From assembly GCA_043821445.1 (NCBI GenBank), contig JBDRCT010000017.1:5679-69678 (forward strand): a stretch of DNA of 64,000 nt, in the 5' to 3' direction. Positions 2,100 through 23,100 of the stretch are shown here, one piece after another. A program made the position numbers and the translations under genes. The notes under the pieces are model-generated. The model did no database searches, was not told the DNA's origin, and saw only the letters and a program-made list of their open reading frames with translations. Each line of letters begins with the position of its first letter. Within the stretch, counting starts at the first letter, position 1. The stretch comes from Candidatus Omnitrophota bacterium. GTDB lineage: Bacteria > Omnitrophota > Omnitrophia > Omnitrophales > Aquincolibacteriaceae.

Positions 2100-2128
2100 A
2101 GTGTATCACAAGTGATGAACCAAGTCAA
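2100..2128 (-). promoter_or_regulatory. candidate sigma70-type promoter of the antitoxin-toxin operon, with a palindromic operator in the spacer
   Basis: Minus strand reads TTGACT (plus 2123-2128), a 17-nt spacer, then TACACT (plus 2100-2105). The palindrome ATCAC-TT-GTGAT (plus 2105-2116) sits inside the spacer, and GGAGG precedes the ATG. Confidence 0.5.
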
Positions 2129-2183
2129 GGGAAGAGACGAGAGACGCAGGCAGTAGTCTGCGGTCTATGGTCTGTAATCTGGC

Positions 2184-5100
2184 TTACGCGGACTTCCCGA
2201 TCGCGGCGGCGGCTTGGATCGCGGCGCCCAGGAGCTCAGCGACAGTGAATTGGAAGGCACTGCTCACCTTTGTGCGAGACCCGGTCACGGTCACAACCCC
2301 GTCGAACTGATTGAGCAACGCTGACGCCGCATGCAATTCGCTGGGGTCAACACCCTCCGTCACCTGGGCTTGGATCACATTCCGGTTCGCCTTTGCCGTA
2401 GCAACATCAATATGTAACCGATCCAATTCTTCTGTAACCGCCTGCGACAATAGGCTGTTGACCTGGCCAATGCGGAGGTCCATCTTCCCGACCCCTTTCA
2501 GAGCCTCGTTCGCAGCCGCTTCATCCGCCTGACCTGCGATGACCACAAACCTGCTGCCGGCCTGACTCTGCGCTACCCGTTGCGCGATGTAAGCCCCGTC
2601 AAACCCGTCGGCCGGATTGAATTCAATAATATGGAGTCCATTCCCCTTCAGGGAAAGAATCACACTTACATTAAGCGACTGCATGATCGATTCGATCATG
2701 CGCCCTTCGATCCGAGTGGCAAGCGGATTAACAATCTCAGGAAGAACCTGCATCGTAAACCGGGCTTCCTGCACCCCTGCAGCCGCCGCAATCGCTCTTT
2801 GGATCTCCTGTTCGCGTGCCGCCGCGCTTTGTTCCTGTTCCGCCGGCTGGACCTCGGGCGTTCTCAATTCCGAACGCGCCGGAATGGATTCCACGTTAAC
2901 AACCACTTTCTTGTCGGCAGACTGCTGAATACCCGCCTCCAACACCGTTCTGCCTTCGGACGCCACCACAAACCGGCCGTCTTCCATCCGGAAATCCGCC
3001 GCTTTCAACTGATCGAACGAGACCATCTTCAACAGCTCATTGATCTTTGTGGCATATTCCTTCCGGTCGACGCTTAAACTGATAAAATCGGTCTGCGTTA
3101 ATTGTTGAAGCTTGGAGAGCGCGTAAACGAGTTTGGTAACACTTTCAGGATTCCCCTGGCGCACCATCTCACGGAATACATACACGATCCGCTGGAACGT
3201 TACAGTCTCCATGAAAGTCTTGAAGTCGGGATTGGAGGCCAGTTCATTACGGATCTCCGCGGGAACTGCCTCTTCGGCAATGGCCTGGCTCAGATCAAGG
3301 ATCACGCCGTCGCGCGGTTCGTAAAAACCGGCCGCACGAACAGACGCCCAGTTCGACTGCAACCGCTCAAGGTTCGCCGCACTTTGCAAATAACGGGCGT
3401 TTGCGAGTTGGGCCGATGTAAGTTTACCTTTGCCCACGGCCGCGACATCAAGGATATAAATGAAAGACATCAGTTTCAGAAAGACCGGAATATCATTCTC
3501 CGGAAGCCCTTCAACCACCTTTCGCGGAACCGTCTCTCCCCACGGCAAAGCACCATATTCCAGTTCGCGCGAAGTCAATGCTGTCACGATCCTGACGGTT
3601 CGCGCGTCCATGCCGAGTTTCTCCAGGATCGCTTTGACCAGCTCGCTACCCACCACCGGATGCAACGGCCCCGTCGTGATCAGGCGCCCGTAATCGTGGA
3701 ACGCCAACGCCAACGCAAGCAACTTCTTCTCCTGCTCCGACAGACTGGCATTATAACTATCAACGAACGCCTTGAGGCCGGCCTCATCTAATGTCACGCT
3801 CGCTAGATTCCTGCTCCGGAAATAAGATACATCGTTAGCCTGCAATGCTTTCACACCGTTGAAGATCACTTGCTGGTGGTCACGGAAGGTCACGGTAGAT
3901 CCGTCCGGCATTTGCCATGCGGCCCCGCGGATCGGAACGTCCTGCTGCCAACCGAAAAGGCCGAGCGGGCTTAAGGCGTCGATAATGTCTTGAGGATTAT
4001 TCATCGCGGAGATCTTTTCCGCACCTTCGAGGTCCCGGGCCGGATCGATCCTTTCTAAATTGGCCATAAAACGGGTTTTCAACTGTTCCTGGAGCGCGGG
4101 CATCTCGCCCGAGGTCACGTGGATCTTTCCGACCAGTTCCCGGCTCTTATTGTCTACCACGGCACGTGCTTCGGACCGAACCTTGCTTAAAGCTTTTTCC
4201 GCGTCCGCCCGCGCAATAAGATTCAACGCTACCGGCCCGCGTTGCATCGAAGCGGTCCACCGGCCGATCATTGTGTTGATATCTTTGATACGATCTTCAT
4301 GAAGTATCGGACCACCCGGTAACAGGGAGAAATTGCTGACACTCAGAAGCTTAGCGCTCGGAGCCGGCACATCCTGCGCAGCTTGTGAAACAGGGCCAAA
4401 CACCATTTCGACAGTCCCTCCCACAAGACCGTCCAACTTCACATCATACTGGATCGTCCCCTCCTTCGAGACATCGAGAACACGAGTTTCGCTTCTCGCA
4501 AGCGCCAGGCTGACAACAACATCCGGAACAAGGGTTCCAACAATTCCAAATTCTCTAGAGGGTACGTAGACCGGTGCCCGGACTTCCGCCAGCGACGGAG
4601 GATTCACCTGGGCCTCCTCCGCGGGAACTTTTGGAACCTCGAGTCGCATTGGCATAGGCGCCGCCGGAGTTGCTTTGAGTTCCTCCAGTTGTTTCGCTTT
4701 TGCATCCGATAATTTGATATTTTCAGAATGGCGGATCCACATCCACAAAACTCCTACAACGCTCGCCAAAACAAGCAACAGCGCCACCGGCCCAACAAGG
4801 AACAGCCCACCCCACATCAACCCAGCAAATGATAAAACGATCGCAGTACCTATTAATCCGGCGATCTGCCAAGGGGTTTTCTTGATCCGGGCATCCAGCG
4901 CCGCGACTTCTCCCTCTAATTTTGTTACATCCTCCGACGGCGCAATAGCTGCCACGAGTGGCGCTACCGGAACCGCAGGCGACGCAGCGACAGTTTCCGG
5001 CGCCACGGCTAACGGCGTTTGCGCGGCAACTTGTGAAGCTAGAATCTCAGGCTGGCTTTGAGCCGTCTTTGGAGTAGCAACGATCTGTTTACTCCCGGGT

Positions 5101-8100
5101 AATACTTCCTGAGCGAGCTCCTGTTGGCGACTTAGATCGGGCAGCACCTCTTCCAGCGTCCGAACTTCAGACCGGCCAGGAGGAGTTCTGAGATTCCCAT
5201 ATTGATCAACGTCCGCCACATTTTTCGGTTCTTCCATCTTCTTTGGAAGTCCAAAAAAGCGTAAAACACGTCCCAATTTTTTCACACGCGACGAAGTTTT
5301 TTCATTTTTGGAAATGTAATCAGAAACGTTATACATTAGCTTGTAAAGCTGCGTTGATGGTGTCAAATCAGCTTTAATAGCCGCCTCTTCAACACCAATG
5401 TAGCCGCGGATAAATTCCAGCCAATGTCTAGCAGGTGCCATCAAAAGGAAAGGCGCTGCCAATAAAAACCCTGTCAATGCAGGGATCACAAAAACCATCG
5501 GTAACGCAAACCAGAAATAGACAGCCGATGCCGCGCTCATCTTGAGAAAAACACCGGCCGCGATCATAAGCCCGACCCCGACATTGAACCCCACGTGAAA
5601 CAGGACATTCGAAATTCTCATACTCCAGCCGGCAAACCATCCCAAGGTGCCTTTCTGCTCTTTTTTGGTTTCGCTATCTGAAAACATATCGGCCTTCATG
5701 CTTCTGTAGACATGCACCCAGAACAGACCGAGCCTCTTGATGCCGCCCCCCTTAAAACCGAGTCCTTCTTCAAGGTCGGGATAGCCGGCCGGCAAATTTT
5801 TGAACTGGTCCAGCCAGACATGCCAACCCGCCATGGACCAGGACCAAAGGAACGTGATACCGAAGACGAACGTGAACAAATTACTGTGGAACAGAACGCC
5901 GGAAGCGATCGCGAGGAGCGCCGCGACAAAAGCCGGACTGTAGAACATGTAAGTGCGCAGCAGGCTCTTTGCGCCATCAATCTGTCCGGTCCCGAACGAA
6001 GTGGCCCAGGGCAGCTGCTGGTCACGCATCACAATAAAGATCATCCGGGTGAATTTAACGGTATAGCGCAGCACCAGATAGCTGATCACGAACGCCGTAA
6101 AAATAGGATGTGCCGCTACCAAAGTCCCCAAGATGCCCGTGATGCCCCAGGGTGATAAAACACTCCATGCCGTCAGTTTTGCCGCAAGCACCGCGGCACC
6201 GGACGTAAAATGCCAAAACACGAAATTCCCGTTCATAACATACCAAAAGAGAACGGGAATACCAAAGATCATCGCGGGTTTCGAAACCCATTGGATCAGA
6301 TTCCCGATCACGGTGCCGATCGTCAAATGCCAGCTCCTGCTAACATTCTGGGAACCCTGCATAAAGAGCTTCCAGGGGTTCTCCCAGAAATTGCGCTTGA
6401 TATGGAGAAAAGTATCCGCCAGTCCGGTCGTGGTCCCTTTATAGAGCAGCATGACCTTCCCCCAGGTCTGGCCCTGAATGCTCCCAAAAAGCACGGGGAA
6501 AACGATGACGACGAAAAGCACGCCGATGAAGAGCAACCCCACCACCGGGAACGGGAGCACCACGAAAGCCGGAAGGAATTTTGCCGTCAGGGTGATACTC
6601 GCCCATACTAATGCCACGACCATGGAAGTAAATATCACGCCGTTCATCTTTTTAGAGATCCTGGTCCATTCCAGAATCAAGGCAATCATGAAAGAACCCA
6701 ATAACATGGCCGCAAGTACGACCGTGAACGGGAGCCAAGCCGGCCAAAGAACGCCGACAACCCCCAGCAGCGCCACCAAAAATCCCGGCATTAATAGACG
6801 CTGTATAATATTAAGAGCTTTTTTCCCGGAGAGTTGTTCCGCGTCCGCCGCTGAGCGGCGCATGAACCCGGCGATCAGGAGCGCGACCACGATCCCGATG
6901 ACCACCCCCACCCAGAGCTGGGGCATAACACACGACGTCATCAGGAATTCGGTCGACCGCGGCACCATGATCGTATACATGTTCGCCATCCCAGATAGCG
7001 AAGGGTCAAAGAAAAACCGTTTGATGACCCAGAAACCGAAGATGATCGGGTTGATGTATCCGAGCACCGCCACAAAGCTCATCCAGCGGGCCGCCAAGGG
7101 AACGCCCGGCTGGAAAATATCATACACACGCATCAGGTCGCCCTGGGCCCAGCGTACGAAGCTCCTGCCTTCCATTTCGAAGAACGTAGGTGTGGAAGGT
7201 TCGAGGATCGCGGCATTGTCCACGAACACGGCTCCCGTCGTGTCCCCTTCCTTGTAGTCGTGGCTCAGTTCCTTGATCGTCACGACGCCGAAAGACCCGG
7301 CGCTCTTGCCCGAGACCCATAACCCCGCAAACAACCCCAGCATTTGTCCGATGGAGAATTGAACCATCAACGGAGCGCTTAACAGGAAAGAAAGAGCCCC
7401 CGGAACGAAAGGAAGAGCACTTGGGATGAGAGGAAGAACAAATGACAGAAGAGAAAACACGATGGGCCCGGCCGCGATACCTGCCAGTGTGAACACAAGC
7501 ACCGTCCACCACCGGGAGGGCATGTTGCGCGCATCTCCCGTATGGTAATGGCTGTGAAGATTGACCAGCGCCTTGCCGGTAAAATTCCCCCGCCCCCGGA
7601 TCAACTGCAGGGCGTGCGCGTAAAAAACGCCGTGATTGCTCGCGAAATCGTTAAGCATCGTAAAAAATGTCCGGGCCGTCCTTTCCGTGACGACTTTCGT
7701 CCTCGGGATGATAATGCCCGCCCAATTATGTGTACTGCGGGCGACCTCCACCAACTTCCGGACGACATTGATGAAGGCCTTTTCGTTCGGGTATTCCGGA
7801 TTGTCGGGATTGTCCCCCAGACGGTTCTTATTATCCATCGTGAAGATATGCTGGGTACCCTCGGGATTTGTCGTGAACAATTGAACGCGGCGGCCTTGTG
7901 AATCCTCTACTGGAGCAAGTCGACCATTTTCATCTCTTTCCGGCAGACGATTCCTCAGTAAATGGTCCGGATCAAACCCGCAAATTGAATCCTTGGTATA
8001 AAGATCATCGGCAAAATAGCGGGTTCCCACTTTATTCGGTTTCAAATTCGCCTTGTGCTGTTTGTAATTCATGATCGCGCGGCCCGCAAAATATCCCATC

Positions 8101-11100
8101 AGCCACATCACCGCCCCCACAATCCAGGGACTGCTCAAAATAGGCCCGAGCACTGCAAGCGCCGGAGCTAACCAGATAACGCCCGCCACAGTAAGGACAA
8201 GCGCCACTCCATTCACAACCGCTGCCCCCACCGGATCATTGACGCGTCCCGAAAAACGCAGTAACGGAATAGGCAGTTCAGTCGCCGCGGGCGGACCGTC
8301 CTGGCCCATCAAATAATCCTCGGTAGACAGGATGTTCCCCTGTTTCTTTTCGAAATGAAGTTCCGTCAGAGGAAGATAGTAAATGAGCGCCTTGCCGAGT
8401 TGGGCTCGAGTAAGAGGTATGAGATCTCCTTTGCGTGCACCTTTCGTAGGTTCATCTTTCGTATAAACATAACCCGGGATCGTATAATCTCCATTCCCAT
8501 TGGGAACGTAAACGCTTCCATCGCCGAACCGGCTCGCACCTATTTGAATGACCTGTTCCCGGGCATATTCCAAAGCCGCTTTGATGAATTCAAATTGTAA
8601 GATCGCGTTGGCATCATTTTTCCCCGCTTTTTTAATGACCTTCGAATATTCTTTTTCGGCAAGGATGAGCAAAGTCGTCCTGCCGTACGGATCGAGATTG
8701 TACGCCAGCGAATCAATCACGTTTTTCAGAAAAAAGAAATCTTGCCAGCCGCCTTCATTATTTTTTTTGTCTATGTCGACGCCGAATTCGATCTTAAATT
8801 GTTCCTTGATGTATTCGATGCTCGCATGGGCTTTAAACATCTCTAAAAGCCATAATCTTATTGTGTGATCGATCACAGGTTTATCAGCGGCATCCTTCAT
8901 AGGCTTACCAGCGGCATCTTTCATAGACTCCTGGGGCGGCGGGAACGAATCGAAATTGAAATAGGCGATGCTCGTTTTGTGGCCCGGAGGCAGCGCCTGT
9001 CGTTTTTGGCCCTCTTCCGTTTTCAGAGAAACCTCGCGCTGAACTTCTTCTCCATCCTTTTCCTCAACAACGGTGAAAGAAAGATCATGCCGGTCCGCGG
9101 GTTTTAGATAAACCCTCGTTCCATCTTCTTTTTCAATATACGGTGGAAGATTGCCCTTGGAATCTGAAGACTTGGGCGGCTGCTCAGCCTCAGTCTTAGC
9201 CTCGGGCTTAGCGGTGGCCTTCAGTACCAGAAGATCGAGTTCGGGACGCTCAATAGCATCGCGCGATGCTGCACTGGGTCTCATTTTCACGAGTTTGGGG
9301 AAAATCTTAGCTAACACCCCTCGCACACGGCTTTGCTCCCCCATAGTCATGCTCTTGGGGAAGATCCGTCCCGCCAGCCAGGCCGTAAGGATGTGCGAAA
9401 GCATGAACGCCATCCACCCGCTTTCGAAAAGGTCTATCACGTTCCAGAAAATATTCGAATTCGTCAGTTCCAATACCTGCCAACTCATCAGGAGGAACAA
9501 CCCCACGAAAGCGCCGTGCACTAGCAGCATGACAGCTCCGCGCAAAGTCAGGTACGGTGGGGCATATTCCTTGCCCAGTGGCTCACGGCGGACCTCGCGA
9601 TTCCGTGCGGCCAACGCAGGATCCATCGTTTCTTCTTCTGTGCTAATGAGCCTGGAAAACAGCTGCCTCATTTCAGACCGGGGCAACATGCCCGTACGCT
9701 CATACTGAAACTCCTCTCTGAGCACAGGATTACCAGCGTGATCCAGTACAGGTACCTTGATCTTGCCCGCCTTGCGCAATTGCCGGACGGCGAATGCCGC
9801 GATGAGAACAAAGATCGTGGTAATGACGGAAAAGATCGGCAGGATGACCGACCAGGCGCTCCAGAATTCGCCCATTTGGCGGGTCCTGGACCCGCGCTCT
9901 GTGAGGAAGTCGCTCAGCTTGGGCCGCGCTTTCCCGCCCTTGGTTTCCTCCTGGATCCGGGTGTTGCTCGAAAGCACATAATTGTCCGCAAAATAGGACT
10001 CATACTGTTTGGCAAGTTCTACACCCTGGGCCCCTGCCAGTTGCCCCAGGACTTCCAGCTGCTCCTGCGAATAAAAAACAGGTTTCCGGTCCGCGATGAC
10101 CCCGGCATGGACCAGCGGCATGTCGCGCCCCGCCGCGATGAAACGCAGGAGGCTATCATCCTGGACCCGGAGGTCCGCAGGAATATCCTGCTGCTCTCCC
10201 CGGAACCAGGCCAGATCGGTCAGCACGACGCGAACCTGAGCGGGTGACAACAGGCCGCGACCAAGCCCTTGGATCCACGCGTCCTGTTGTTCCTTCGTGA
10301 GGCCGAGGGATAACTTTTCGGAAAGGCCCTGCACGAACTGTTCCGGCGCCCCGGCGTCTTCAGGTTGGAGAGGCTCCTGTTTTTCCGCCGCAAGCTGCAG
10401 GTATTTTCTAAGCATGTTCTCTTCGAAGTTCTTGAAGGTCGCAACCGTTTTGTCCTGATGCAGCGAAAGAATGCTGTTTAACAGTCTATTAGGATCCATG
10501 GCCAACCGGTCCCCGACGACGATCTCCTGCATGAGCGTCTTGAGGTCGTTGACCATAAGATTGAGTTGATTTTCATCTTTGATGTCTCGTAATTTTTGGA
10601 GCGAGCCGGCATTCAATGCTCCGAACAAATGATTGTTATCGACATAATATTTCACCAGTTCGGGGATCCTGTTCGCCGGAACGGTCTTTTTCGCCTGGAG
10701 GCGCGCCTCAAACCCTTGTTCGAAATCTGCCGGGGTCGCAAGCACGACGGGCCGCGTCATCAGCCTCAGAATGAGAAAACGCCTAAACTGTGACGCGTCT
10801 TCCAACATCTTCCGATCATAGGTCAGGTCCTTTCCGTTCCGCGCAAAGAACTCATCCCGGAAGGACCCTTCGAGATCTTGCCCGAGACGAGCGATCTCCT
10901 GGAGCCGCTGTAGGTCCTTCACGTTCTTTCCGAGGCCCATCAGGAAGTGGAAGAAATCTTTGTCTGCCAGTTGGGGATCAACCGGCCACCGGGAAAGAAA
11001 CGTCGTGCTAAGCAGAAGAGCCGTCCGTGCTTTCTCCCCTTCAGGCAAGGCCTCCCATAACGCTCCCCGTTTATCGGCCATCTGTTGGAGGTCAGATCCC

Positions 11101-14100
11101 GGCAAAGCGTATTTACCGCGAAAAGCGTCCTGTCCTTCCGCGGAGGCGGCAACATTCAAGTATGTTTTGGAAGGATCCGAAGGCTCCACGAAAATGAATT
11201 TTGTGACCATTTTCTGGACTGCCAGCGACGGACCGTTGTACCCAGGGGCGACAATGCTATGGTGACGCATCTTCAAACTGCGGCGGAATTCGATCACGTA
11301 TCCTTGCATTTCGTTAAATGCCAGCGGCCGGCCGAGATTTTGTTGTTCCAACGTTATTTGTTTTTCTCCGGGTTTACGGCTAAGTTTCTCTTCCGGAATC
11401 ATGCTCTTGTACTGTCCCGGGATAAGATCCGGACGCCCGAGGGCAAGGGCCAGCATCAGCTGGCACTGTTCAAAATATTCCTGAATATCAGAGACCTTTT
11501 CGATCTCTTTGGTATTAAGGACAACGCTCATGATATCGGCCTTGGTAATGGAATATCCCATGGGCTCGAGAATACCGTGATAGGCCTCCCAAGCGGCTTT
11601 CGCCCGGGGGATGATGACCGTCTCGACTTTTTTCATATCCACGTATTGTTCTTCACTCTCCGGATATTTGTTTTCTTCGACCATTTTCGACAGCCACTCC
11701 GGAATCATTTTTGCCGCCCACCCCGGAGCCTGACGGGACAGCCAGTAATTCGGCGTTGCGGCGTTCCTTTGCGCCTCCGAATCCATGACCCTCCCAAGCC
11801 AAAAGCTCGCGGTCCCGACCAGCATCCTCCCGGCGGAAACGCGTTGCAAAAGCGGAAGCGTCGACTGCGCTTGCAATACCCCGGCCAGATCGGGGTCCGC
11901 AATCATGAGGGATTCCTGCAGGCCTATGATCTTGCGCTCCATATTCAGACTGCCTGCGTCCTGAACGACCGGATAGCGGTCGAATTTCCCGACGATCAGG
12001 AAAAAGTTATCGAAGAACGTCCTTAATTTTGCCAGGGAAGCCGGATCATCTTTAGTAATGTCAAGACCCCGCGCCTTCAACATATCGGGCATGCCCGCAA
12101 CGATCCCTTCCACGAAAGCGCCCGGGAAATTCTCGCTGGCTTCCGTATCGATGATCGCATCGATCTGGGCCTTCCAGGCCGGGTTCCTGTTGATCACTTC
12201 CGCATATTTACTCCTCTGCAGGAACAGATACAGGTCTTTTTCGATCTGTTCGATCGTCCTCGGTGTTTCTTCAGGATAAGCGACCGTCACGTTCCCATAA
12301 TGGCTCTTGAGCCATGTCGAAAACCCTTCGAAATCCTGGCCATGCTGGTCCACCAACAATTTCAAGACCTTCCCCCTCTGCGCATAGATCGCTTCAAAAT
12401 CGGCCGGCAAGTCTTTAGCGGCACCGGTGAGACGCCCCATGAGTTTGGTCAATTTGGCCTTGCCCTCGGGGGTCTTGTCTTTTGCAAGTTCGGGCAGCAA
12501 GGTCCTGAGGTCTTGATTCTCACCGATCACTTTAAGTGCGCGGAGATAATCCGTAAAAGCCGGAGAGTCGATCAATTTCACGATATTTTCATAGCGCTGG
12601 GCCAGGCGGTCGTACGGGATATGATCTCGCTCGGCGATGTACGCTTCGTTCATGATGTGGCCGAAGGCAACACCCTGCTGTTCTTCGGGTTCACGAATGC
12701 TGTATTGATAGCTGCTGCCGTAAAGGATCTTGAAGATCTCCTCCGCCCCCTTGAACGCCTTCGGGTGCTTGGCGAACTTATCCATGAGATCCAGACGGCG
12801 TTCGTATTCTTTGATCCGCGCATCGATACGCGTGCCGATCGGGGCGTTAACGCCGCCCATCGTTTCCCATTTCTCATAGTCCCACATCGTATCAAGCTGG
12901 AACTGCGAGAGAAGCTTCCCTTGCCGGAAATCTTCCCGGTACTGCGCCGCCTCTTTGTGCCAGTCCGTGACCCCGAGAATGAATTGGGCGTGCGCCATGA
13001 CAATGCCCATGTTCGCGCTGACCTTTCCTCCTTGATCCAACCGGAAATCCCTGCCATAAAGTTCCTGAAGCTTCGGATAAAGCTTGCCTGCCACTTCGAT
13101 AATCTGTTTTAACTCATCGATCGTCAAATGGTACCGTGTCCCGTATTCATACCAGGCGGACACCTGCCCGCTGTCGCGCGGGTCCTTCATATTAAGTGCC
13201 CGCGAAAAAAGTCTGCTGGCGTCGAGGGCTTTCAGGATCTCAGGCGCTTTTCGATAATAGTCATCGATACCGCTACGAATATCGCCCAGCGGACCGGCGC
13301 GGATCCCTTGAGGCAGCGCGTTCCCTAATTCGTCCAACGCATCCGAAATGCTCTTACCATGAACTTCAGCGTATTGCTCGATCCCCTGGATCGTCCGGAA
13401 AACAACTTCACCCATGAGCGCCCCGGTGCGAAGACCCGCTTCTTCCTTTTGAACCTCCCGACGGTCCGCGTAGGTCTGATTGGCTTCCGCGCTCGCTCTC
13501 AGAAAACGCAACATAGCGGCCGACGGATCGGCGGCAGAAGGTTCTCCGTTGAGACCCACGATGGGCACGCGCTTATTTTCCAGGATATAGTTGGTGAGAA
13601 GAATGACCGTATTAAGACGCTTTGCCCGCTCGCCTTTATCCGGAGAATACAGTTTTCCCATAAAACTCATGTATTGCCAGGCCGTGATATCGGCCAGGTC
13701 CTTGATATCGCCATAAAGACCCAGATCCCTTCCGAAATTCGCGCGGTAAAGGTCGAACACTGCTTTACGAACGTTATTAAATTCCTGGAAGGTATCTTCC
13801 AGGGTCGAAAATTTATAATAAGGTTGTGCGCTGACCTGGCGGTCCGTGTAGGTGGCCCAATCCAGAAACACCTGACCAACGAACCTCCGCTTCAGGGCGG
13901 CGTCATCCTCCTGGGAACCCAGCCGCTTCTGCTGCTCGGCCCAGGCCTTAAAATCCACACGTCTATCCTTGATATCCACGAGGCGGCTTAACAGGCCGTC
14001 ACGTGTCAAGAATGCGATCTCGTCACTGGTAAACTGGGGCGGCGCAATGACGGGGACGGCCTGACCGTTCGGGGAGGCCTTATTTCGTTCGACCTGGTCT

Positions 14101-17100
14101 GCCATATTTTTGACTAACTTTGTCAAAAAGATAAAATCGACTTTCAACCGTTCGGAGAACATACTGTTAAAACGGTCGGAAAATTGGTTCTGAACGAGCT
14201 CAGGAACATTGGCGGATCTTGCGTTGATATCTTCCACCTTCATCCCTTTTAAAATGGACGTCGCGTAAAAAACGTAGACCCCCAGGATCCGGAGGTCTGT
14301 GTTTCTGTCCAGAAGCGAGTTCGCCTCTTCCTGATTCATTGCCGTCAACGTCCTATTCGAAAGCAACCCTTCGATCAATTGTGCGTAATTCAGCCCCAAC
14401 TTTTCGTTTCGAGGTAATTGCGCCATGAATTTCTTGAAATCCGGATCATTCAGCTTTTCCTTAAGCGAAGGCTTCCCGTCGGTCCCGGACCGGGACAATG
14501 TTTTCAGGATCTCGAACATCGCGAGCCTTTCATTGGGGGTCAACCGCATCGCATCAAAAAGCCGGACGAAGACATCTTCCACCAGGACTGGCTCGCTCAA
14601 TCCCCCGACAACTTTGCCGTCACGGCCACGCTCGATAACCGCGGTGTCGGCACCAAACATATTTCTCCACAGTTCGCTCACGGAAGGTACGTATGGCTCG
14701 TTGGTGTTTTTATCACGATAATCCGTTCGCGGCTCAATAACCGGCGGTTTTTTCTCCTCGCCAAGTTTTTTCTGAAGGACCTTGAGATCCACTACCGCTT
14801 CGGCCGGCTCCGGAGGAACAGGAAGTTGCGCAACCTCGGCCGCTTCCCTGTCGATCCGCGCTTCCGCCTGCTGAAGTTGTTCCAGGGCTACCTGTTGGCG
14901 CGTCTGGTACGGCAACGGCGCTCTGGCCGTGTGCTGGACCCTCTGTGCTTCCTCGTGAAGGCCCATCAGCTCCGTGGTATGGGAAAGATTGATCAAAGAT
15001 TTTTGAAATTCAAAATTGATGCCCGTAAGACGCAGGGAATCGTTCTCGCGGTAGTCAAAAGCGGCCAGAACATCGTTCACGGTCTTGACTGTGCGGCCAG
15101 GCTCCCCGATCGCACGGTAACCGGCCGTGGCGTCATTCGCAAAGCTTAATGACCCCGCGAATTCATCCGCGATCTGGACCAGCCGGACGCGATTCAGGAC
15201 AAAAGCGGCGTATTCTTCGAGAGCCTGCATTTGGACCGCTCTCCTGAGAGGGTCTTGCTGCGCCACCGCCAGTTCTTTCTTTGCTTTTTCAATGTTCACG
15301 AGTTCCGTTTTCGCACGGTCGATCAAGTGGCGCGTATATTCGGCGCCGACCGAGGGATGGTAACCGGCGAAGATCCCGACTTGGGAAGTCCAGCTGCGGT
15401 TCTTCTCCGCTTGCTTGACTTCGGCCGTGGCTACATCGTTGTTCCTCAAGATCGATTGGAACCTGGGGTCTTCCGCGGCACTCTTCAACATCTTCGCGAC
15501 AACTTCTTCCCCGATAGGTTCCCCGTTGTAGACCCGTTGGAGAAGGTTCGTCGGCGGCACTTGGATATCGATTTCGGCGGGGATCCCGGCGATGAATTTC
15601 AACATGTTCACGTAAATCTCAAAGTCCCGCTCGGCCGTCTTGGCCATGGTCACCGTACGTATGACCGCATCACTGAGTGCTTGTTGGTCTTCGAGAGCGG
15701 TGCCGGTTTGCGCGGCAGCTGCCATTTCCTTCCGGGCCTGCATTTCCTGTTCGCGGATGTCCCAGATGGCCTTGGACCTTAACACGTCTTGCCAGGCCAG
15801 TTCCACTAAGCGCTGTCGGATGTCCCTGCGAAACTCTTTTTCAAGACCCAATTGTTTCGCCCGAGCCATATAAATCTCAAGCTGCGTTTTGCTGAATGCA
15901 AGTTCTCTAAAGTCAAAGGTCACCCGACCGCCCGCTTGAAAATCATCTCCTCTGCCGAATCCGAGAGGAATCCTGAAAACTTCCGTGCTGATAGCCAAAG
16001 GCCGCAAATAACGACCATATTCCTGTATATCCCGTAATTCTTGGGCAAGTTTTTCGTTGGAGTCCGCAACACGGTCGCTGTTGCTTTTGACGAAATCCCG
16101 GAGATTCTCAGGCGTCGTTAGATCAATGACACGGCCTTGGGCCCCGATCTTCAACGTTCCCTTGGTCGCACGATTGACCTGGAGCAGCCGCAAGTTCAGT
16201 TGGTGGATCAGTTCATTGTCATCCTGGTCGTCACGGTTCACCTGACGGATAGCGGTATAAAGCTCCCTGTCGCCGGCATCCGCTAAACCGGCCTGTTCCT
16301 TCTCTTCATATTCACTGATGCTCTCGTCAAGGTCCCCGATCAGGCGCCGGGTTTCCGTCTTCTGGTCCTTCGTGTTGGCGACCTGCCGGTCAAGGTTCTG
16401 GGAAACAAGCCCTTGACGTATGATAAAGTCCTGGTAATCATCGAACATGGTCCGCAGATTCGCCTCGGCCACCGCAATGTCAAGCGTTTTATCTTTCGCC
16501 AGGTGCCCGGAATAAGTCCGCAGGCTCCCGGAGCCGCCGATCCCGATATGCGCGGGGTCTTCGATGATGGCATCAAGATGCTCGCTGATCGGGACATAGT
16601 TCGTCGTCACGGGGACGGCGGAGATGAACGGGACCATGAGGTGCAATTGTTTGTAGCTCTTGTGGTCGGCCGTGTTCAGCATCGCCCACTGGATGCGGAC
16701 CCGTTGCTCGGCGACTTTGCGATCGATATCTTTGTCGAACCCGGAAAGAAGGCCCAATTCTTCTTCACTGAGCTCTCCTTCCATGAAAGACTGTTTGCTT
16801 TTGGGCGTGTAAGTGAACCTGCCCGGGTCTTTACGATCCTCAACGTCACGGCCCATGATGCGGAGCATTTTCTCTTCTGCGCGGTTATGCTCCGACTCCA
16901 GGGAAGTCTTCGCTTCTTCAAAGGAAGAAAGGCGCTGCCTTCCCCATATGATCTGCCGGTCGATATCCTTGATCTTCTCCGGGGTCACACCCTCCTTCTC
17001 CCTCGATGCTTCCAATAGTGCCAACAATGTTTGCTCGTGCATGATCGCGCCCTCAAAGACATCGATACGGTAATGGATCTGATCCAAGAACTGGCGTTGG

Positions 17101-20100
17101 ACAATGATATTCTTGACATAATCGCGCTTATGGGCCTGCTGCAACAATTCCGATTCCTTTAACGCTTGTTCGAAGAAATCCCACTGTGCGGACATGTCCC
17201 CGAAATCCCAAGTGCCAGTCAGGCCTCCGCCCACTCCGGCCTTGAAAACGCCAAGCGCCTCCACGCCGCCGTCCACAAAACGCCGGATGCGGAGGTCCCG
17301 CAGCTTCTTGTCCTTCAATTCCGGATGGCTATCTTTTAGTGCCTGGAGGTCCGCTTTGACTTTCGGAAGCGTAAAATGCAGGGCCTTCAGGTCTTTGGCC
17401 GCCTTCTCTTTTTGCTCCGGGGTGGATTGGTCGGAGTTCAGGACCTCTTCCGCTTTGCGGATACGGGCTTCAATATCACCGATCTGACCGATCCAATTGC
17501 TGAAGTTGATCTCAATACGTACGGCCTCATAGGCCTCAAGTTTGGCCTTATTCACTTTTTCGATCTCTGCCTTGATCACTTCCGGTAAGCGTGGCGCCTT
17601 ACGGAAAAGATCACCGAACTTTTGGAAAAGATCGCGTTCCTTAGGACTGGTCGCCCGTTCATATTCCGAGAAAAGCTGGGCCTCGTATTTCTGAAGATCT
17701 TTGATCTCAACACCATTAACCGTTCCTTTCAGTCTGATTCCCTCCCCAGCCAGCATCTGGATTTCACGTTCTTTGACTTCCCGGGCACGGAACTCCTCAA
17801 GGAGGAGGTTCACATTTTTCCCGCCGGCAAGGTTGTCCGCTAACTCCGTGGCATCAACCGGCCGGTCACTTTGCCGGTATTTCGCTTCAAGCTGGGCGAA
17901 GTACTCCGCGTCGAAAAGTTTTCGGCTTTCCCCTTTTTTGACCTTTTCGGCATCACGCTCGAAATCCTCTTCGAATTTCGCGAGCTTTGCGCTCACCCCG
18001 GACGTAAAACGGTTGATCTCGATTGTTAGTTGTTCCACTTGATGGGCCGTGTCTGCGGCCTGTCTTTTCGCGAGGTCATACTGCTCGACCGCAGCCTTAA
18101 ATCGCATGGACCAGCCCGACTCGTTGCGATAGCGCTGCCGTTCTTCCCTCAAAAGGTTCTCTGCCCCATCAAGCCGGGATTGGACGATCCCGTTAATCCG
18201 GACAGCCGTCTCGAGACGGCCACGCAATGCCTCCTCATCCGCCTTGATCTGCTGGGCGTCCTGATAATATTGCAACGCAGCCCCCTCACGGGAAAGCATG
18301 TGGACCATCGCGGGTGTCTTGGGATCGCGAACGGATGAAAGCGGCGACATGAAGTCGAACGCTTTGGGAGGATTGAAAAAGATACGTGTTCTAAAGAGGA
18401 TCCCCATTTTCCCGCGGGCCTCAGCCAAAGAGGTGTTAAGTACATCCAGCGCATATTTCCCTTGCGCTGCCGCAAGGTCCAGGCTCTGTCCTCGCGCGGC
18501 CGGGGCCGCGGTAGCCTCAAAAAATTTGGCCGCCTCTTTCGGATCTTCCAGTTCTCTCGGGAGGATGATCTTTTTGTCCGTGACCCCGACCAGAGCGCCG
18601 ATCGAACGCAAGATCCCTTCTAATTCAGCACGACGGTCCGCCAGGTCACGCTCCAATTGGCGGCGTAATTTACCGATCGCCATGGCGGCATCCGTGTCCT
18701 GTCCTTCCCGGGTACGTGTTTTCGCAATTTCTTCGTCGTTGCGCACATCTTCAAGCGAAAGCCGCAACTTCTCTGCAAGGATTCTCGCACGGGCATAATT
18801 ATTCCCATGCGTCCTAAGTTCGCGGACAACATCGGCCATTTCCCGGTCCATTTGCAATAGTCCTTCCCGCTCACGGTACGTGGCGATCGCCTGGCGTTCA
18901 TTTTTCGTGGGATCCGACAAATAGAAACTGACCTCGGTGCCGACACCGTATCCTTTAAAAATAAAATCGGTGCCCGCGCGGGCGACAATACTCAAGGTGA
19001 ATTTCCGGTCATTCCTCTGGAACTTCGCCATGGCGTCCAAGATCGCCTTCGAAGGACCTGCCGTGGCCATCCGCGTCGCGATCGCCATTTCCAGCAGCTT
19101 GTCAACACTGACCGGCTGCCCTTCATTAAAAAGAGGCAAAGCGATGGTCACGTTTTCCGTGACCGGAGTATGTTCCTTGGCCTCGGTAACAGCGCTAAAC
19201 CGTTGAAGAATGGCTTCTCGGACAACATTCCGCAGCATCTCGATCTCGGGAGGTGTCAATGCGTTAATGCCGCCGGTCTGGTCCATCAACTCATCAAAAC
19301 CCGCCTGCAGGTCTTCGGCCTTCAACTTTGAAACATCGCCACGGCCGTCGGCGCCCCTCAGGGAGGCCACGTACTGGTCGGCAAGGCTTTTAATGAAACC
19401 GGGCCGACCAAGCAGGGACCTGGCGATCTCGCGGCCGGCATCCGAGGTATTCGCGTTAAAAGTGATCCTGTCGGTGATCTCACTCGTCAGGTAGTTTGCA
19501 AACCTCTGCGCATACCCATTGCGACTTTCCTCAAGGCGGAGTTCTGCTTCCTCCCGTTTTGATACAAGTTCGTCGTGAATCCGTCGCGCCTCTTCGGCCG
19601 CGGCTCCCATCGGTCCGGCAACGGCAGCCGTTTCTACCGTAGCTGCTCTTGTAACGTTCGGAGCGGGCCTCGCGGTAACTGTGGCGGCTTCTTCACCGAT
19701 CGCTGCGACACCTGTCATTGCGACTAAAGATAATACCGCCGACGTATTGGGCCCGAAAATATCGTCGACCGGCTTCGTGAGAGCCCGGAGACTGCGGCCC
19801 TTTAACTGTTCGGTAAATTTTGCGGGAACGGCCGCGCCCGTCATGACAGCGGCGAGCTCGGGGTTGTTCATTACTTCGGTTTGAAATTTTTCGACGACTT
19901 TGGGGTATTTTGCTTCATTAGCCTTAAGCCAGGCACCGATGTTGTAAGGCGTCGGCGCTTTTCCTTCCTGAGCCAACGCTGCCTTGCCTTCCTCGACAGC
20001 TTGCTGTAAATCGGTGGATAATTTCTGAAGTTCCGCGGGCGCGGCCTGCCGCTCGGTCACAAGCTCTGTGCGCTGCGCTTCAGCGGTGGGGACTTCTCTT

Positions 20101-23100
20101 TGCAGTGCGGCGTCTTCCACACGCCCCGCAGCCATTTCTGTAGCTCTCGCCGCAGGAGTGATCGTCGTCGAGGCCGGGACGCCGGATCTTTCCTGAACAG
20201 GCGGTTGGGGCGTGGCCGCTGTCTTTGGCGCGAATAAGGATTGGATACCACTGAAGACTTTCTCGATCAACGGAAGCGGATTGGGGACCATCCCGGCCTG
20301 CATAACTTTTACAGGTTCGCCCGTCGCGGCCGGGGTTTGCACAGCCTCTGCCTTTGCTTGACGGATCACCGTCTCCACGGAGGCAATTGCAATGTTCATT
20401 TCCTCCAAACTCATGGCATGGTTCGGGTCCAAAACAGCATCCGTGACCTTGGAAAATAGTTGTCGCGCCAGCAACGCCGTGACTGACGATTTCGGAAGCT
20501 TACGAAGCTCTCCGTCTAAACGCGCCAGGGCAGGTGACGCTGTCATCCGGACCTTTTCCGCCTGAAGTTCCGCCAAATGCCCGGCCTCTGTCCTATAAGC
20601 TTCGGTCCCCTCGCTCATTCCGGTCATTCTTGCCTGAAGGGTCGCAATGTCATGCGAGACTTGCCGGTCAGCGATATCTGTTCCAACACGGGCCAGGGCA
20701 CTATTCAGAAACACTTCCGGAGCCACAAGCGGCACAAGCCCGCCCAACGACCACATCCCCTGCCACACATTATTGAATAGACCGAGGAGGGTCCGTTCAA
20801 TGAACATCGCCACGGTGTGAAAACCATGGAATTCTGCGATGCCTAAAGGTTTTAAGGCCTGATTTGCCACGCTATCGAGCGATCCAAAAAGATGTAACAC
20901 GGCCGGAATTTCAAATGCCAGGGTGATGAGCCCCATGGCCGTCGTGAAGCCGGAAAGATAGAATCTTCCGCTCCCTAGAGTGCGGTACCGAGCCATGCGG
21001 TTGATCTCCATGCGTGTCGCGACCGCATCATCCACAGCAGAACTGGTCAGAACCCGTCCTGTCTCCCGGGCCTTTTGAATTTCATCCTGTGTGTACCGGC
21101 CGGCCAGCTCAGCCTGAATTCCATTAATACGTTCCAATAAAAGGAGTTGCTCGTTCTGATTCAAACTAAGGACATTCGCGACGATCATGCCGCGCAGCAT
21201 CTCAAGGTGGGACAAGAGGAACATATCGAACGTTTTCTCATCCATCCCAAGCTGTTTGGCCATTTCCTGGCGTTGTTCCGGCCCGATCGCATCAAAGTAC
21301 TGTCCTATTCCTTCATAAGTCAAAGTCGAAACGGATTTGCCGCCCTCTGTCCTGCTAAAAGCGAAGAACCCGGAAGCCTCCATCGTTTTAAAGCCGTACG
21401 ACCGCATTAGTTTCAGGACAGGTTCAAGGAAATATTTTTCCTGAATATGCTCAGCACGGCTTTTCTTAGCGGCCCCGCCGTACGCCATGATCATGCCGAG
21501 GAAAACATCTTTAAGGAGCGTGCCAAGACTTAAGGGAACCGCATCACCAAAGACTTTCAGAACGACTTGCTTACTGAACAGGTTGTGCGGAATAAATGAA
21601 ATGAGGTCGGGCGCCACAAATGCGCCGATCAACAAATAGCCCGCAATTCCGAGCCCGGCCGCCATCCCGAAAACGGAACCCGCGGTCTTGACGCGGTAAC
21701 TCCGTGTGGCCTTTTTGATCTCCGCCGCCTTTTGCGCTTCATTCAATTCGGTCTTCGGGAGCGCCCCGTATTTGCCCTCGATAGCGGCTAAGGTCTCTTT
21801 GAATTTTTCTTTACGGATCTGATAGACCCCGTAAGCGCGGTAGGAAACAAAAAGGGCAAGCGCGATACCGGTCCCGATCGGCCCCGTAAGGATGAAGGCC
21901 CCGGCGATGATCCCTTTGAAGAACAACGCGCCGCGGCCAAAAACGAACCATTGGAAAAAAGCCCCCAAGGGATTGGTAATATCGGAAAGGACGTAACGGA
22001 CCGCTTTTGCGGAAGTAGCTTTGGAACCCAGAAAATCTGTGATCTTTTTTGCCAAAAAGTTCTGAAGATGCAGGACCCGGATGATACGGGCATGAAGGGC
22101 GTCGCTGCGCGCGAGGTGATTCGCTACATTCTGAAGTCTCTTTTGGACCACGATGTGCTGGTCAAAAAGAGTGCGGATCCGTTGGGCTTCTGCAGAAGGA
22201 AGACCGGCCAACACCTGATCCAATTCCTTGTTCACCTGGTCCCAATCCCCGGTCGTCGTCGCAGCCTGCCGGCTCAACTCTTTCGCTTTTTCCGCAAGGG
22301 CCGTCAATGCCGCATCCTTCTTCTCAGTGAGATAGTCCTCGATCGTTTGCCCTACCACCAAGGGAAGCCGGCGATTCAAGGCATCCGTCAGAGCCTTCAC
22401 ATCGACGATCGCTTCCCCGGTTTCCGGATCGATCTCGACTTTTCCATCCTTGCCGATCTTTACAAAATAGGTCCGCTGTCCCGTTCCGTGGATGCGGTAC
22501 ATGATGGGATAAATAAGTTTTTGAATGAACGAAGACATGAGTTGGATCGATAGATAGAGCGGCGCACCCAGAACAAACAAAACCCCCAGCAATCCTTTTG
22601 CGACAGAGCCGCTCTTAAAGAGAGTTTTGACGTTCTCAATAAAGACAAACGTCACGTTGGCCATTTCCTTGGTCATCATCAGACCGATGACCGCTCCAAG
22701 GGCCAACACAGGCCACGCAAGGGAAATAAGCGCTGCCACTCCGACGCCTGTCAACAGACCGACTGCAAGGCCTGTCGCATAGAAAATCCCTTTGTGTGAT
22801 TTCACGCGAAGGTCAAGAGTCTTCTGTTCTTTCATATGCTGGCGCTGTTCAAAATCTTTTTCGACCTGCAGGTCGCGGATCGCTCTTTCAACTTCTTCCA
22901 ACTGCGCCAGGCTTAGGTCTTCTAAACGGACCGGCGTTTTTCCATCCACACGCAAACTCGGGATCTTCGCCAGCAGTTCCTCTTCTTTCATACTGTGTCC
23001 GGTCCTACCCAACGTCCGAGCCCGAATTTGATGGATAAAGAGGTCTTTGTCTTTTTTAGCGAAGCGCGTAAATGCAGATATCCCGGATAGCCCCTCGGCT

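Follow-up and report, generated by a model that had tools for sequence, protein, structure and literature searches.

Within the window, a 64,000-nucleotide stretch of contig JBDRCT010000017.1 from a Candidatus Omnitrophota bacterium (assembly GCA_043821445.1), a single, uninterrupted open reading frame (ORF) of 7,941 amino acids (aa) occupies positions 2184..26009 of the minus strand. We analyzed two elements toward the C terminus of this giant protein: a membrane module built of many helices and, downstream of it, a soluble region with an HD-like motif. The module appears to be a very divergent relative of the membrane-embedded glucan synthases of the OpgH/MdoH and NdvB/Cgs types, and the downstream region an HD-like domain that lacks the first histidine of the metal-binding set, a reading to which we assign a probability of about 0.6. 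Residues were converted to nucleotides throughout as nt_high = 26009 - 3(aa - 1).

A sequence-only reading of this DNA had pointed to a near-continuous run of hydrophobic helices at nt ~5440-8250, and we confirmed this run, with 16-20 helices at nt 5430-8234. The peptides quoted in support are present, namely ALPFVPGAL... at aa 6198-6232 (nt 7314-7418), FLVALLGVV... at aa 6410-6448 (nt 6666-6782), LPAFVVLPF... at aa 6479-6509 (nt 6483-6575), and, in the soluble region, LALAFHDYGRL at aa 7433-7443 (nt 3681-3713). The residue range suggested for the block, aa 6880-7830, did not match its own nucleotide range and was ~950 residues off, the true block being aa 5926-6860. The module and the transmembrane (TM) hairpin that follows it are laid out as listed here.

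5430..8234, minus: polytopic membrane module, aa 5926-6860, 16-20 helices; assigned from hydropathy and from homology to an OpgH/MdoH-NdvB core, with extra helices
8082..8234, minus: first TM pair of the module, aa 5926-5976, from hydropathy
7512..8081, minus: soluble loop 1, rich in Lys and Arg, aa 5977-6166, putative N-terminal half of a glycosyltransferase domain
7815..7838, minus: motif MDNKNRLG in loop 1 (family consensus LFLLDDKNxxG), from the family alignment
7569..7586, minus: motif NFTGKA in loop 1 (NFTGKG in the family; NdvB counterpart 'SFTGKG'), from the family alignment
7308..7511, minus: TM hairpin, aa 6167-6234, an insertion with respect to NdvB/MdoH that separates FTGKG from SHD
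7086..7307, minus: soluble loop 2, aa 6235-6308, which holds LSHDYKEG, ILEPST, GRSFVRWAQG, and QPGVPLAARW
7245-7268, minus: LSHDYKEG in loop 2, aa 6248-6255, in which H6250 and D6251 form the putative catalytic-base motif
7191-7208, minus: ILEPST in loop 2
7140-7169, minus: GRSFVRWAQG in loop 2, with R6286 and W6287
5430..7085, minus: downstream helix bundle, aa 6309-6860, about 12-14 helices, from hydropathy
6003-6020, minus: LPW, a family-conserved motif of the downstream bundle
5823-5846, minus: SWSxGW, a family-conserved motif of the downstream bundle
4734..4877, minus: isolated TM hairpin, aa 7045-7092, following the module and preceding the C-terminal soluble region, from hydropathy

Kyte-Doolittle and charge-free-stretch scans divided aa 5926-6860 into 13 hydrophobic blocks of 21-68 residues each, which amount to the 16-20 helices. 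Since the same hydropathy scan found no hydrophobic segment of this kind across the 3,670 residues of aa 1711-5381, the clustering of helices is not an effect of composition. The long loops of the module are rich in Lys and Arg, and the helices between them are paired as hairpins with turns of 2-3 residues; all the large loops, together with the C-terminal soluble region, therefore most likely lie on one face of the membrane, probably the cytoplasmic one.

An exhaustive HMMER search with aa 5900-7099 as the query returned nine relatives among 1.84 billion representative sequences, all of them singleton clusters. Seven are themselves giant (4,048-7,976 aa); the remaining two, at 355 and 751 aa, are fragments. 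The closest, the ortholog P0001 (7,853 aa), is 74% identical over the 1,200-aa query and can be aligned along most of the giant ORF. The stretch around aa 6036-6860 is common to all relatives, with three sharing the N-terminal 575 aa as well, and the full-length relatives keep the same layout, in which a TM pair and a soluble loop come first, followed by a TM hairpin, a ~70-aa loop, and many helices. A word-indexed protein search with aa 5901-7941 and aa 7289-7710 gave no match, not even to P0001; such an outcome is not evidence of absence, as P0001, 74-90% identical to the queries, is present in that same collection of 15 billion sequences and was missed. Genome and metagenome contig scans with the C-terminal 2,041 aa returned no relatives. 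NCBI names exist for two of the nine relatives, both from Candidatus Omnitrophota: P0003 and P0009 bear the names "TolC family protein, partial" and "glycogen/starch synthase, partial." These names suggest that in other giant proteins the module travels with outer-membrane-channel-like domains and with glucan-synthesis domains of glycosyltransferase (GT) family 5.

Although overall identity among the 10 family members is only 21-37%, the polar residues D6059, K6061, N6062, K6146, H6250, D6251, E6254, E6270, R6282, R6286, W6287, and E6354 are invariant, as are G6065 (in MDNKNRLG) and G6145 (in NFTGKA). Most of these residues fall on the family motifs LFLLDDKN, NFTGKG (K6146), LSHDYxEG, EP (E6270), and RxxxRW. 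Such a set of fixed polar residues amid low identity looks like an active site.

We compared a hidden Markov model (HMM) of the family with known synthases, starting from three proteins of E. coli K-12, OpgH, BcsA, and PgaC. OpgH scored 12.2 bits (single-comparison E 4e-6) over its residues 446-538, along the pattern 'lsHDykE...RW.G...G....R....Y', and 6,000 shuffled versions of OpgH, local or global, all stayed at or below 6.3 bits. Scores were higher for Sulfitobacter MdoH (23.4 bits), Sinorhizobium meliloti NdvB (26.5 bits), and Neorhizobium MdoH (37.9 bits, single-comparison E 6.5e-14). Profile-profile alignment with hhalign against a combined NdvB and MdoH profile gave a probability of 96.3% (E 1.8e-9), and the full 951-residue module gave 95.7% (E 1e-8) over 307 columns. 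Unbiased tblastn searches against 7.3 Gb of plasmids led to the same enzymes: the family member P0006 matched Neorhizobium and Rhizobium mdoH at E 2e-5 and 5e-5, and four of the five matches of P0003 were mdoH. With the window's own aa 6236-6373, 16 matches were obtained (best E 0.09), and every one of the 11 that carried an annotation was ndvB/cyclic glucan synthase or mdoH, several of the ndvB type being listed as "glucoamylase family protein"; the other five had no listed feature. In the reverse direction, an MdoH HMM found the SHD-RW region in 10 of the 10 family proteins, in most of them as its best-scoring match.

The alignments agree residue by residue over the catalytic motifs. H6250, D6251, and E6254 align to the SHD motif of OpgH, MdoH, and NdvB; R6282, R6286, and W6287 lie on the RxxxRW motif, and the GPG..RW segment and membrane helix that follow also align with the glucan synthases. 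The base Asp precedes the RW pair by 35-36 residues in the module (36 from D to W) and by 34-35 in Cgs, in which the corresponding D739 and R773 were identified in a cryo-electron microscopy study (PMC10901819). The D6059 of 'LFLLDDKN' is paired with 'iLSD', the first Asp motif of MdoH, in a low-confidence part of the long hhalign alignment. The most conspicuous departure is the TM hairpin at aa 6167-6234, which intervenes between FTGKG and SHD, motifs only ~20-25 residues apart in NdvB and MdoH; when the hairpin columns were deleted, two weak matches to NdvB (17.6 and 0.5 bits) became the single contiguous alignment of 26.5 bits. The module also has ~8-10 helices more than OpgH or Cgs, and these bear the family-specific motifs LPW and SWSxGW. 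On sequence grounds, we consider homology of the catalytic half of the module (FTGKG, SHD, EP, RW, and the following helix) to OpgH/MdoH (GT2) and NdvB/Cgs (GT84) established at the level of the family; for the window's own protein the link is by transitivity, from the giant to P0006 at E 7.5e-17.

Two further candidates were set aside. A weak match to bPH_10 over the TM hairpin (22.9 bits, below cut-off, in two of the 10 members) was discarded as a hydrophobic match. One stretch far upstream of the module resembles by eye the DxD region of MdoH, 'YMVVLDADSVM...LMEANPNAGIIQS'; its single-comparison E of 0.05-0.19 was not significant, and we treated the likeness as chance, noting it only since a DxD is what the module itself lacks.

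11865-12011, minus: aa 4667-4715, 'DNFFLIVGKFDRYPVVQDAGSLNMERKIIGLQESLMIADPDLAGVLQAQ', likeness to the MdoH DxD region probably due to chance

The second element, the HD-like region, lies beyond the isolated hairpin.

2877..4175, minus: conserved C-terminal soluble domain, aa ~7279-7711, delimited by comparison with the ortholog
3435..3797, minus: GlnD-like HD core, aa 7405-7525, from Pfam, NCBIfam, and a GlnD alignment

Judged by eye from the printed alignment, aa ~7279-7711 are roughly 90% identical to the ortholog, vs. 74% over the 1,200-aa query. The core residues are FHDYGR (H7438 and D7439), GPLHPV (H7450), and YILDVAAV (D7521). A scan of the 422-aa block against NCBIfam matched the GlnD model PRK00227 (17.6 bits, E 8.2e-4, far under its full-length cut-off), and about the same residues (aa ~7405-7480) matched the HD-family model TIGR00295 (E 0.0095) and two more GlnD models, PRK03381 (0.014) and TIGR01693 (0.071). 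Of 14 targeted comparisons, the best was with E. coli GlnD (HMM E 0.005; hhalign P 0.0045, a weak alignment), in which 'TVDEH', 'FHDIAK', 'GGDHSILG', and 'VADICAT' of GlnD pair with 'TLDEA', 'FHDYGR', 'GPLHPVVG', and 'ILDVAAV' here. In that weak alignment (hhalign P 0.0045), the first metal-ligand His of the H...HD...D tetrad falls on A7410, which is Ser in the ortholog, and a later His of GlnD ('RQHL' in RQHLLMS) pairs with SREL of SRELEYG, where the residue is Glu. A tblastn search of plasmids with the HD core gave no match, and no homologs beyond the ortholog were found for testing conservation. Together, these comparisons make a GlnD-type HD fold in the C-terminal block plausible, with the odds in its favor. 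The HD signature proposed from the sequence thus stands in part: the HD dipeptide is real and homology is plausible, but the matches are sub-threshold and Ala7410 occupies the place of the first metal His. As for the conserved H...HD...D ligands, HD and the distal D7521 are present and the first His is missing, so an active HD phosphohydrolase is not established.

Several results weigh against a glucan-synthase relative followed by an HD-like domain. The window's own sequence reaches only E 0.09 database-wide; it is the family profile that confers significance. E. coli BcsA and PgaC gave no significant match to the family HMM, and neither Pfam PF13632, PF00535, and PF13506 nor the NCBIfam MdoH model matched the module at E up to 10, whether the hairpin was kept or removed. 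The family profile retrieved nothing from PDB sequences, and searches there with the HD profile, the module, and the C-terminus gave no relevant match either. The family alignment contains no conserved DxD, the 'LDADS' of MdoH and 'LDSDT' of NdvB standing opposite a gap or 'VRKA'. The first conserved acidic motif follows the TM pair after only ~25 residues, a short span for the opening beta-alpha-beta unit of a GT-A fold. Because the AlphaFold2 model of aa 5920-6870, computed from the 10-sequence alignment, was unusable (predicted local distance difference test [pLDDT] 38.2, predicted template modeling score 0.23), a GT-A fold is not demonstrated for the module. For the C-terminal region, Pfam HD scored 13.7 bits against aa 7423-7482 (E 0.078; cut-off 22), every HD-domain match is below its curated threshold, and a single-sequence model was helical with a low pLDDT (55.6) and had no Foldseek match in the PDB at E < 0.3.

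The missing DxD bears most directly on a module that descended from a glucan synthase and is now catalytically dead, an anchor or scaffold that places soluble regions at the inner membrane. The curated GT2 models are silent on the module, and members differ widely in the distance from the first Asp motif to the 'VRKAxEVM' helix, both of which such a loss of function would explain; yet members only 21-37% identical all retain 12 polar residues, among them the base Asp, the RW pair, and the GK Lys, as for an active site under selection, and we regard a dead scaffold as doubtful. Far less credible is a transporter, permease, or pore for small solutes or proteins, unrelated to glycosyltransferases. 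Its 16-20 helices are within the range of large transporters, and ~8-10 of them have no counterpart in OpgH or Cgs, but searches of Pfam, NCBIfam, and PDB sequences, at E up to 10, brought up no transporter or permease family, and the sole matches found anywhere are glucan synthases. The idea that this membrane domain does more than anchor the protein is accordingly borne out by the glucan-synthase homology and fails in its transporter or permease form (no Pfam, NCBIfam, or PDB match); "translocon-like" would hold only for a glycan channel of the kind seen in relatives such as BcsA. With respect to the HD-like domain, an active metal-dependent phosphohydrolase, for example one removing a nucleotidyl group or hydrolyzing a nucleotide by-product of the synthase, would account for the retention of H7438-D7439, H7450, and D7521, for the alignment with the GlnD HD domain, and for the domain being the most conserved C-terminal part relative to the ortholog. 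Given the loss of the first His ligand and of the 'RQHL' His, uniformly sub-threshold HD matches, and the ortholog as the only homolog on which conservation can be judged, we think such an enzyme unlikely; nucleotide binding or sensing, a regulatory role, or a modified site is more likely.

Returning to the module as a glucan-synthase relative, we infer its activity by analogy, in the face of the hairpin insertion and the absence of a DxD. If it works as OpgH, Cgs, and BcsA do, the two cytoplasmic loops would dock beneath the helix bundle as the catalytic domain. A nucleotide-sugar, most likely uridine diphosphate (UDP)-glucose, would bind near D6059 and K6146, with D6251 of the SHD motif serving as the base, and R6286 and W6287, on an interface helix, would keep the growing chain's acceptor end at the entrance to a channel, which the helices after RW would form. 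The polymer would then be threaded across the inner membrane, as has been proposed for OpgH, or be passed on in the cytoplasm, as in Cgs. Since the SHD variant of the base motif is seen in both lineages of beta-1,2-glucan synthases, whereas BcsA has TED, our best guess for the product is a beta-1,2-glucan made from UDP-glucose.

The linkers of the giant protein contain a recurrent motif, R-S-E-x-R (x = V, L, A, M, I, or T), with eight copies vs. 0.13 expected and at most two in any of 2,000 shuffles.

24057-24071 and 23976-23990, minus: RSExR starting at aa 647 and aa 674
23814-23828 and 9666-9680, minus: RSExR starting at aa 728 and aa 5444
5160-5174, minus: RSEVR, aa 6946-6950, within the linker that follows the membrane module
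4482-4496, minus: RSExR starting at aa 7172
4164-4178 and 2862-2876, minus: RSEAR starting at aa 7278 and RSELR starting at aa 7712

RSEAR and RSELR flank the highly conserved HD-like domain. The relatives P0001, P0005, P0007, P0008, and P0009 contain six, seven, three, four, and seven copies, respectively. The codons differ among copies, and selection therefore acts at the level of the peptide. A literature search for RSEVR, RSELR, and RSEAR returned only unrelated papers on alginate lyases. We consider RSExR a candidate processing or recognition site; it would offer concrete positions for the proteolytic processing long suspected in giant proteins. A more ambitious scheme can also be drawn, in which the module would be an active synthase-translocase without a DxD, the hairpin and extra helices would enlarge its channel, and the giant would be a self-contained line for polysaccharide assembly and export, perhaps cut at RSExR into cooperating subunits of which the HD-like domain is one. 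We offer this scheme tentatively, as a possibility rather than an expectation.

The remainder of the giant protein and its surroundings contain the following features.

~24285-25904, minus: N-terminal domain of the giant protein, aa 36 to ~575
20877-22790, minus: membrane-helix cluster, aa 1074-1711, about 6-7 helices
9369-9866, minus: membrane-helix cluster, aa 5382-5547, about 2-3 helices
27180-27252, minus: tRNA-Ala(CGC), ~1.2 kb upstream of the start of the giant ORF
1563-1841 and 1851-2081, minus: ParE-family toxin and candidate ribbon-helix-helix antitoxin, a pair downstream of the giant gene

Across the whole 7,941-aa protein, no Pfam family reached E 0.01. The N-terminal domain is preceded by a signal-peptide-like helix at aa 12-35 that ends in AYA/AAS. 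Three other giant proteins share this domain (to ~aa 575) with strong conservation (E 1e-132 to 1e-213), and it matched no Pfam or NCBIfam family; its 'ITGGFHTPG' stretch resembles TraB/GumN/erythromycin-esterase-type proteins, but such an identity was dropped, as the Pfam and NCBIfam searches did not support it. Between the clusters at aa 1074-1711 and aa 5382-5547 lie ~3,670 residues of helix-rich soluble sequence, of which aa 3354-4341 are homologous to part of the relative P0009.

Around the giant ORF lie ordinary bacterial genes of the same strand, among them those for LepA, TrpA, and an M16 peptidase. Exact look-ups of the neighboring genes gave no record, and the LepA of the window is 97-98% identical to LepA from several Candidatus Omnitrophota metagenome-assembled genomes, which places the organism in the Omnitrophota. 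Immediately downstream of the giant gene, on the minus strand, is a type II toxin-antitoxin pair, whose toxin belongs to the ParE family (Pfam E 1.7e-10); the ribbon-helix-helix antitoxin candidate is weak (RHH_1 E 0.005, 17.1 bits, under the 20.5-bit cut-off).

What these comparisons add would be a new member of the beta-1,2-glucan-synthase lineage, interrupted by a hairpin, devoid of a DxD, embedded in a giant protein, and known from 10 sequences among the 1.84 billion representatives. One helix cluster of the Omnitrophota giants can now be assigned, with the reservations given above, to an enzyme lineage, the membrane-embedded beta-1,2-glucan synthases, so that at least one membrane cluster of these giants would be a sugar-polymer machine rather than simply an anchor. 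Curated domain libraries miss the module entirely. The assignment is consistent with the GT5, GT4, and phosphoglucomutase modules already reported in these giants, and it therefore makes testable the hypothesis that some giant proteins make and export a glucan at the cell envelope. D6059, K6146, D6251, R6286, and W6287 are the residues we name for mutation.

Among known systems, the giant proteins of the Omnitrophota themselves ("Archaeovorins" and others) resemble the window protein in phylum, great length, and number of helices, although it is shorter, at 7,941 aa. In two preprints, nearly all such giants are described as having many helices, which are treated as anchors and whose topology is called ambiguous, and their domains are said to include GT5, GT4 (GT group 1), phosphoglucomutase, and "HD-domain regulators" (bioRxiv 10.1101/2023.11.21.568195 and 10.64898/2026.06.07.730766). 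From these published descriptions, many helices and an HD-type domain are to be expected in this class of proteins. A Pfam scan of the window protein found none of the domains that define those giants (SecA_DEAD, C39, dockerin/TSP3, GT5, GT4). A term search of both preprints (10.1101/2023.11.21.568195 and 10.64898/2026.06.07.730766) found no mention of an OpgH/NdvB-like membrane module, and none was seen in curated annotation.

The HD core shares with GlnD a local alignment over 'KLLALALAFHDYGRLITTGPLHPVVGSELVKAILEKLGMDARTVRIVTALT', in which 'TVDEH' stands opposite 'TLDEA'; it differs in the replacement of the first His and in scores that stay under the curated cut-offs. GlnD, the PII uridylyltransferase/uridylyl-removing enzyme, also has nucleotidyltransferase and ACT domains, and neither was matched in Pfam or NCBIfam scans of the giant. 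BcsA resembles the module in a catalytic Asp ~35-40 residues before RW, in the G-x-G-(L/V)....R...Y segment after RW, and in the expected architecture of a GT-A domain under a helix bundle, and the helices of BcsA-type proteins form a glycan-conducting channel. It differs in having TED rather than SHD and in lacking any significant sequence match. BcsA also carries a PilZ domain, which Pfam scans of the giant protein did not match.

OpgH/MdoH, glucans biosynthesis glucosyltransferase H of family GT2, was compared as E. coli b1049 and alphaproteobacterial MdoH. It shares with the module the order and spacing of the motifs (the first Asp, (F/Y)xG(K/H)(G/N), LSHD(Y/F)xE(A/G), E-x-P, RxxRW-x-G-(N/D)-L, (G/A)PG(L/V)..R, and a membrane helix) and the placing of helices on both sides of the catalytic loops. 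Unlike OpgH/MdoH, the module has a TM hairpin before SHD, no DxD, and a position within a 7,941-aa protein; E. coli OpgH is described with eight helices, the module having 16-20. OpgH is annotated by Pfam PF13632, PF13506, and PF00535, all three of which leave the module undetected.

NdvB/ChvB/Cgs of family GT84 offers the other close parallel. Its Cgs member differs from the module in having six helices and in keeping D624 for the coordination of UDP, as seen in its structure (PMC10901819). Cgs also carries a GH144-like cyclase domain and a GH94 phosphorylase domain, and it does not itself translocate its product (PMC10901819); Pfam, NCBIfam, and PDB sequence scans of the giant turned up neither domain, no comparison targeted at them having been made. 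With the hairpin removed, NdvB 'GSFTGKGLYHVDAF...LSHDLLEG...RQHRWARGDWQ...GLSMLGRW' runs contiguously with the family pattern 'NFTGKGLVVxDRW...LSHDYxEG...RxxxRWxxG...GPGVxLADRW', and NdvB/ChvB/Cgs, like the module, has its catalytic domain inside a very large multi-domain membrane protein.

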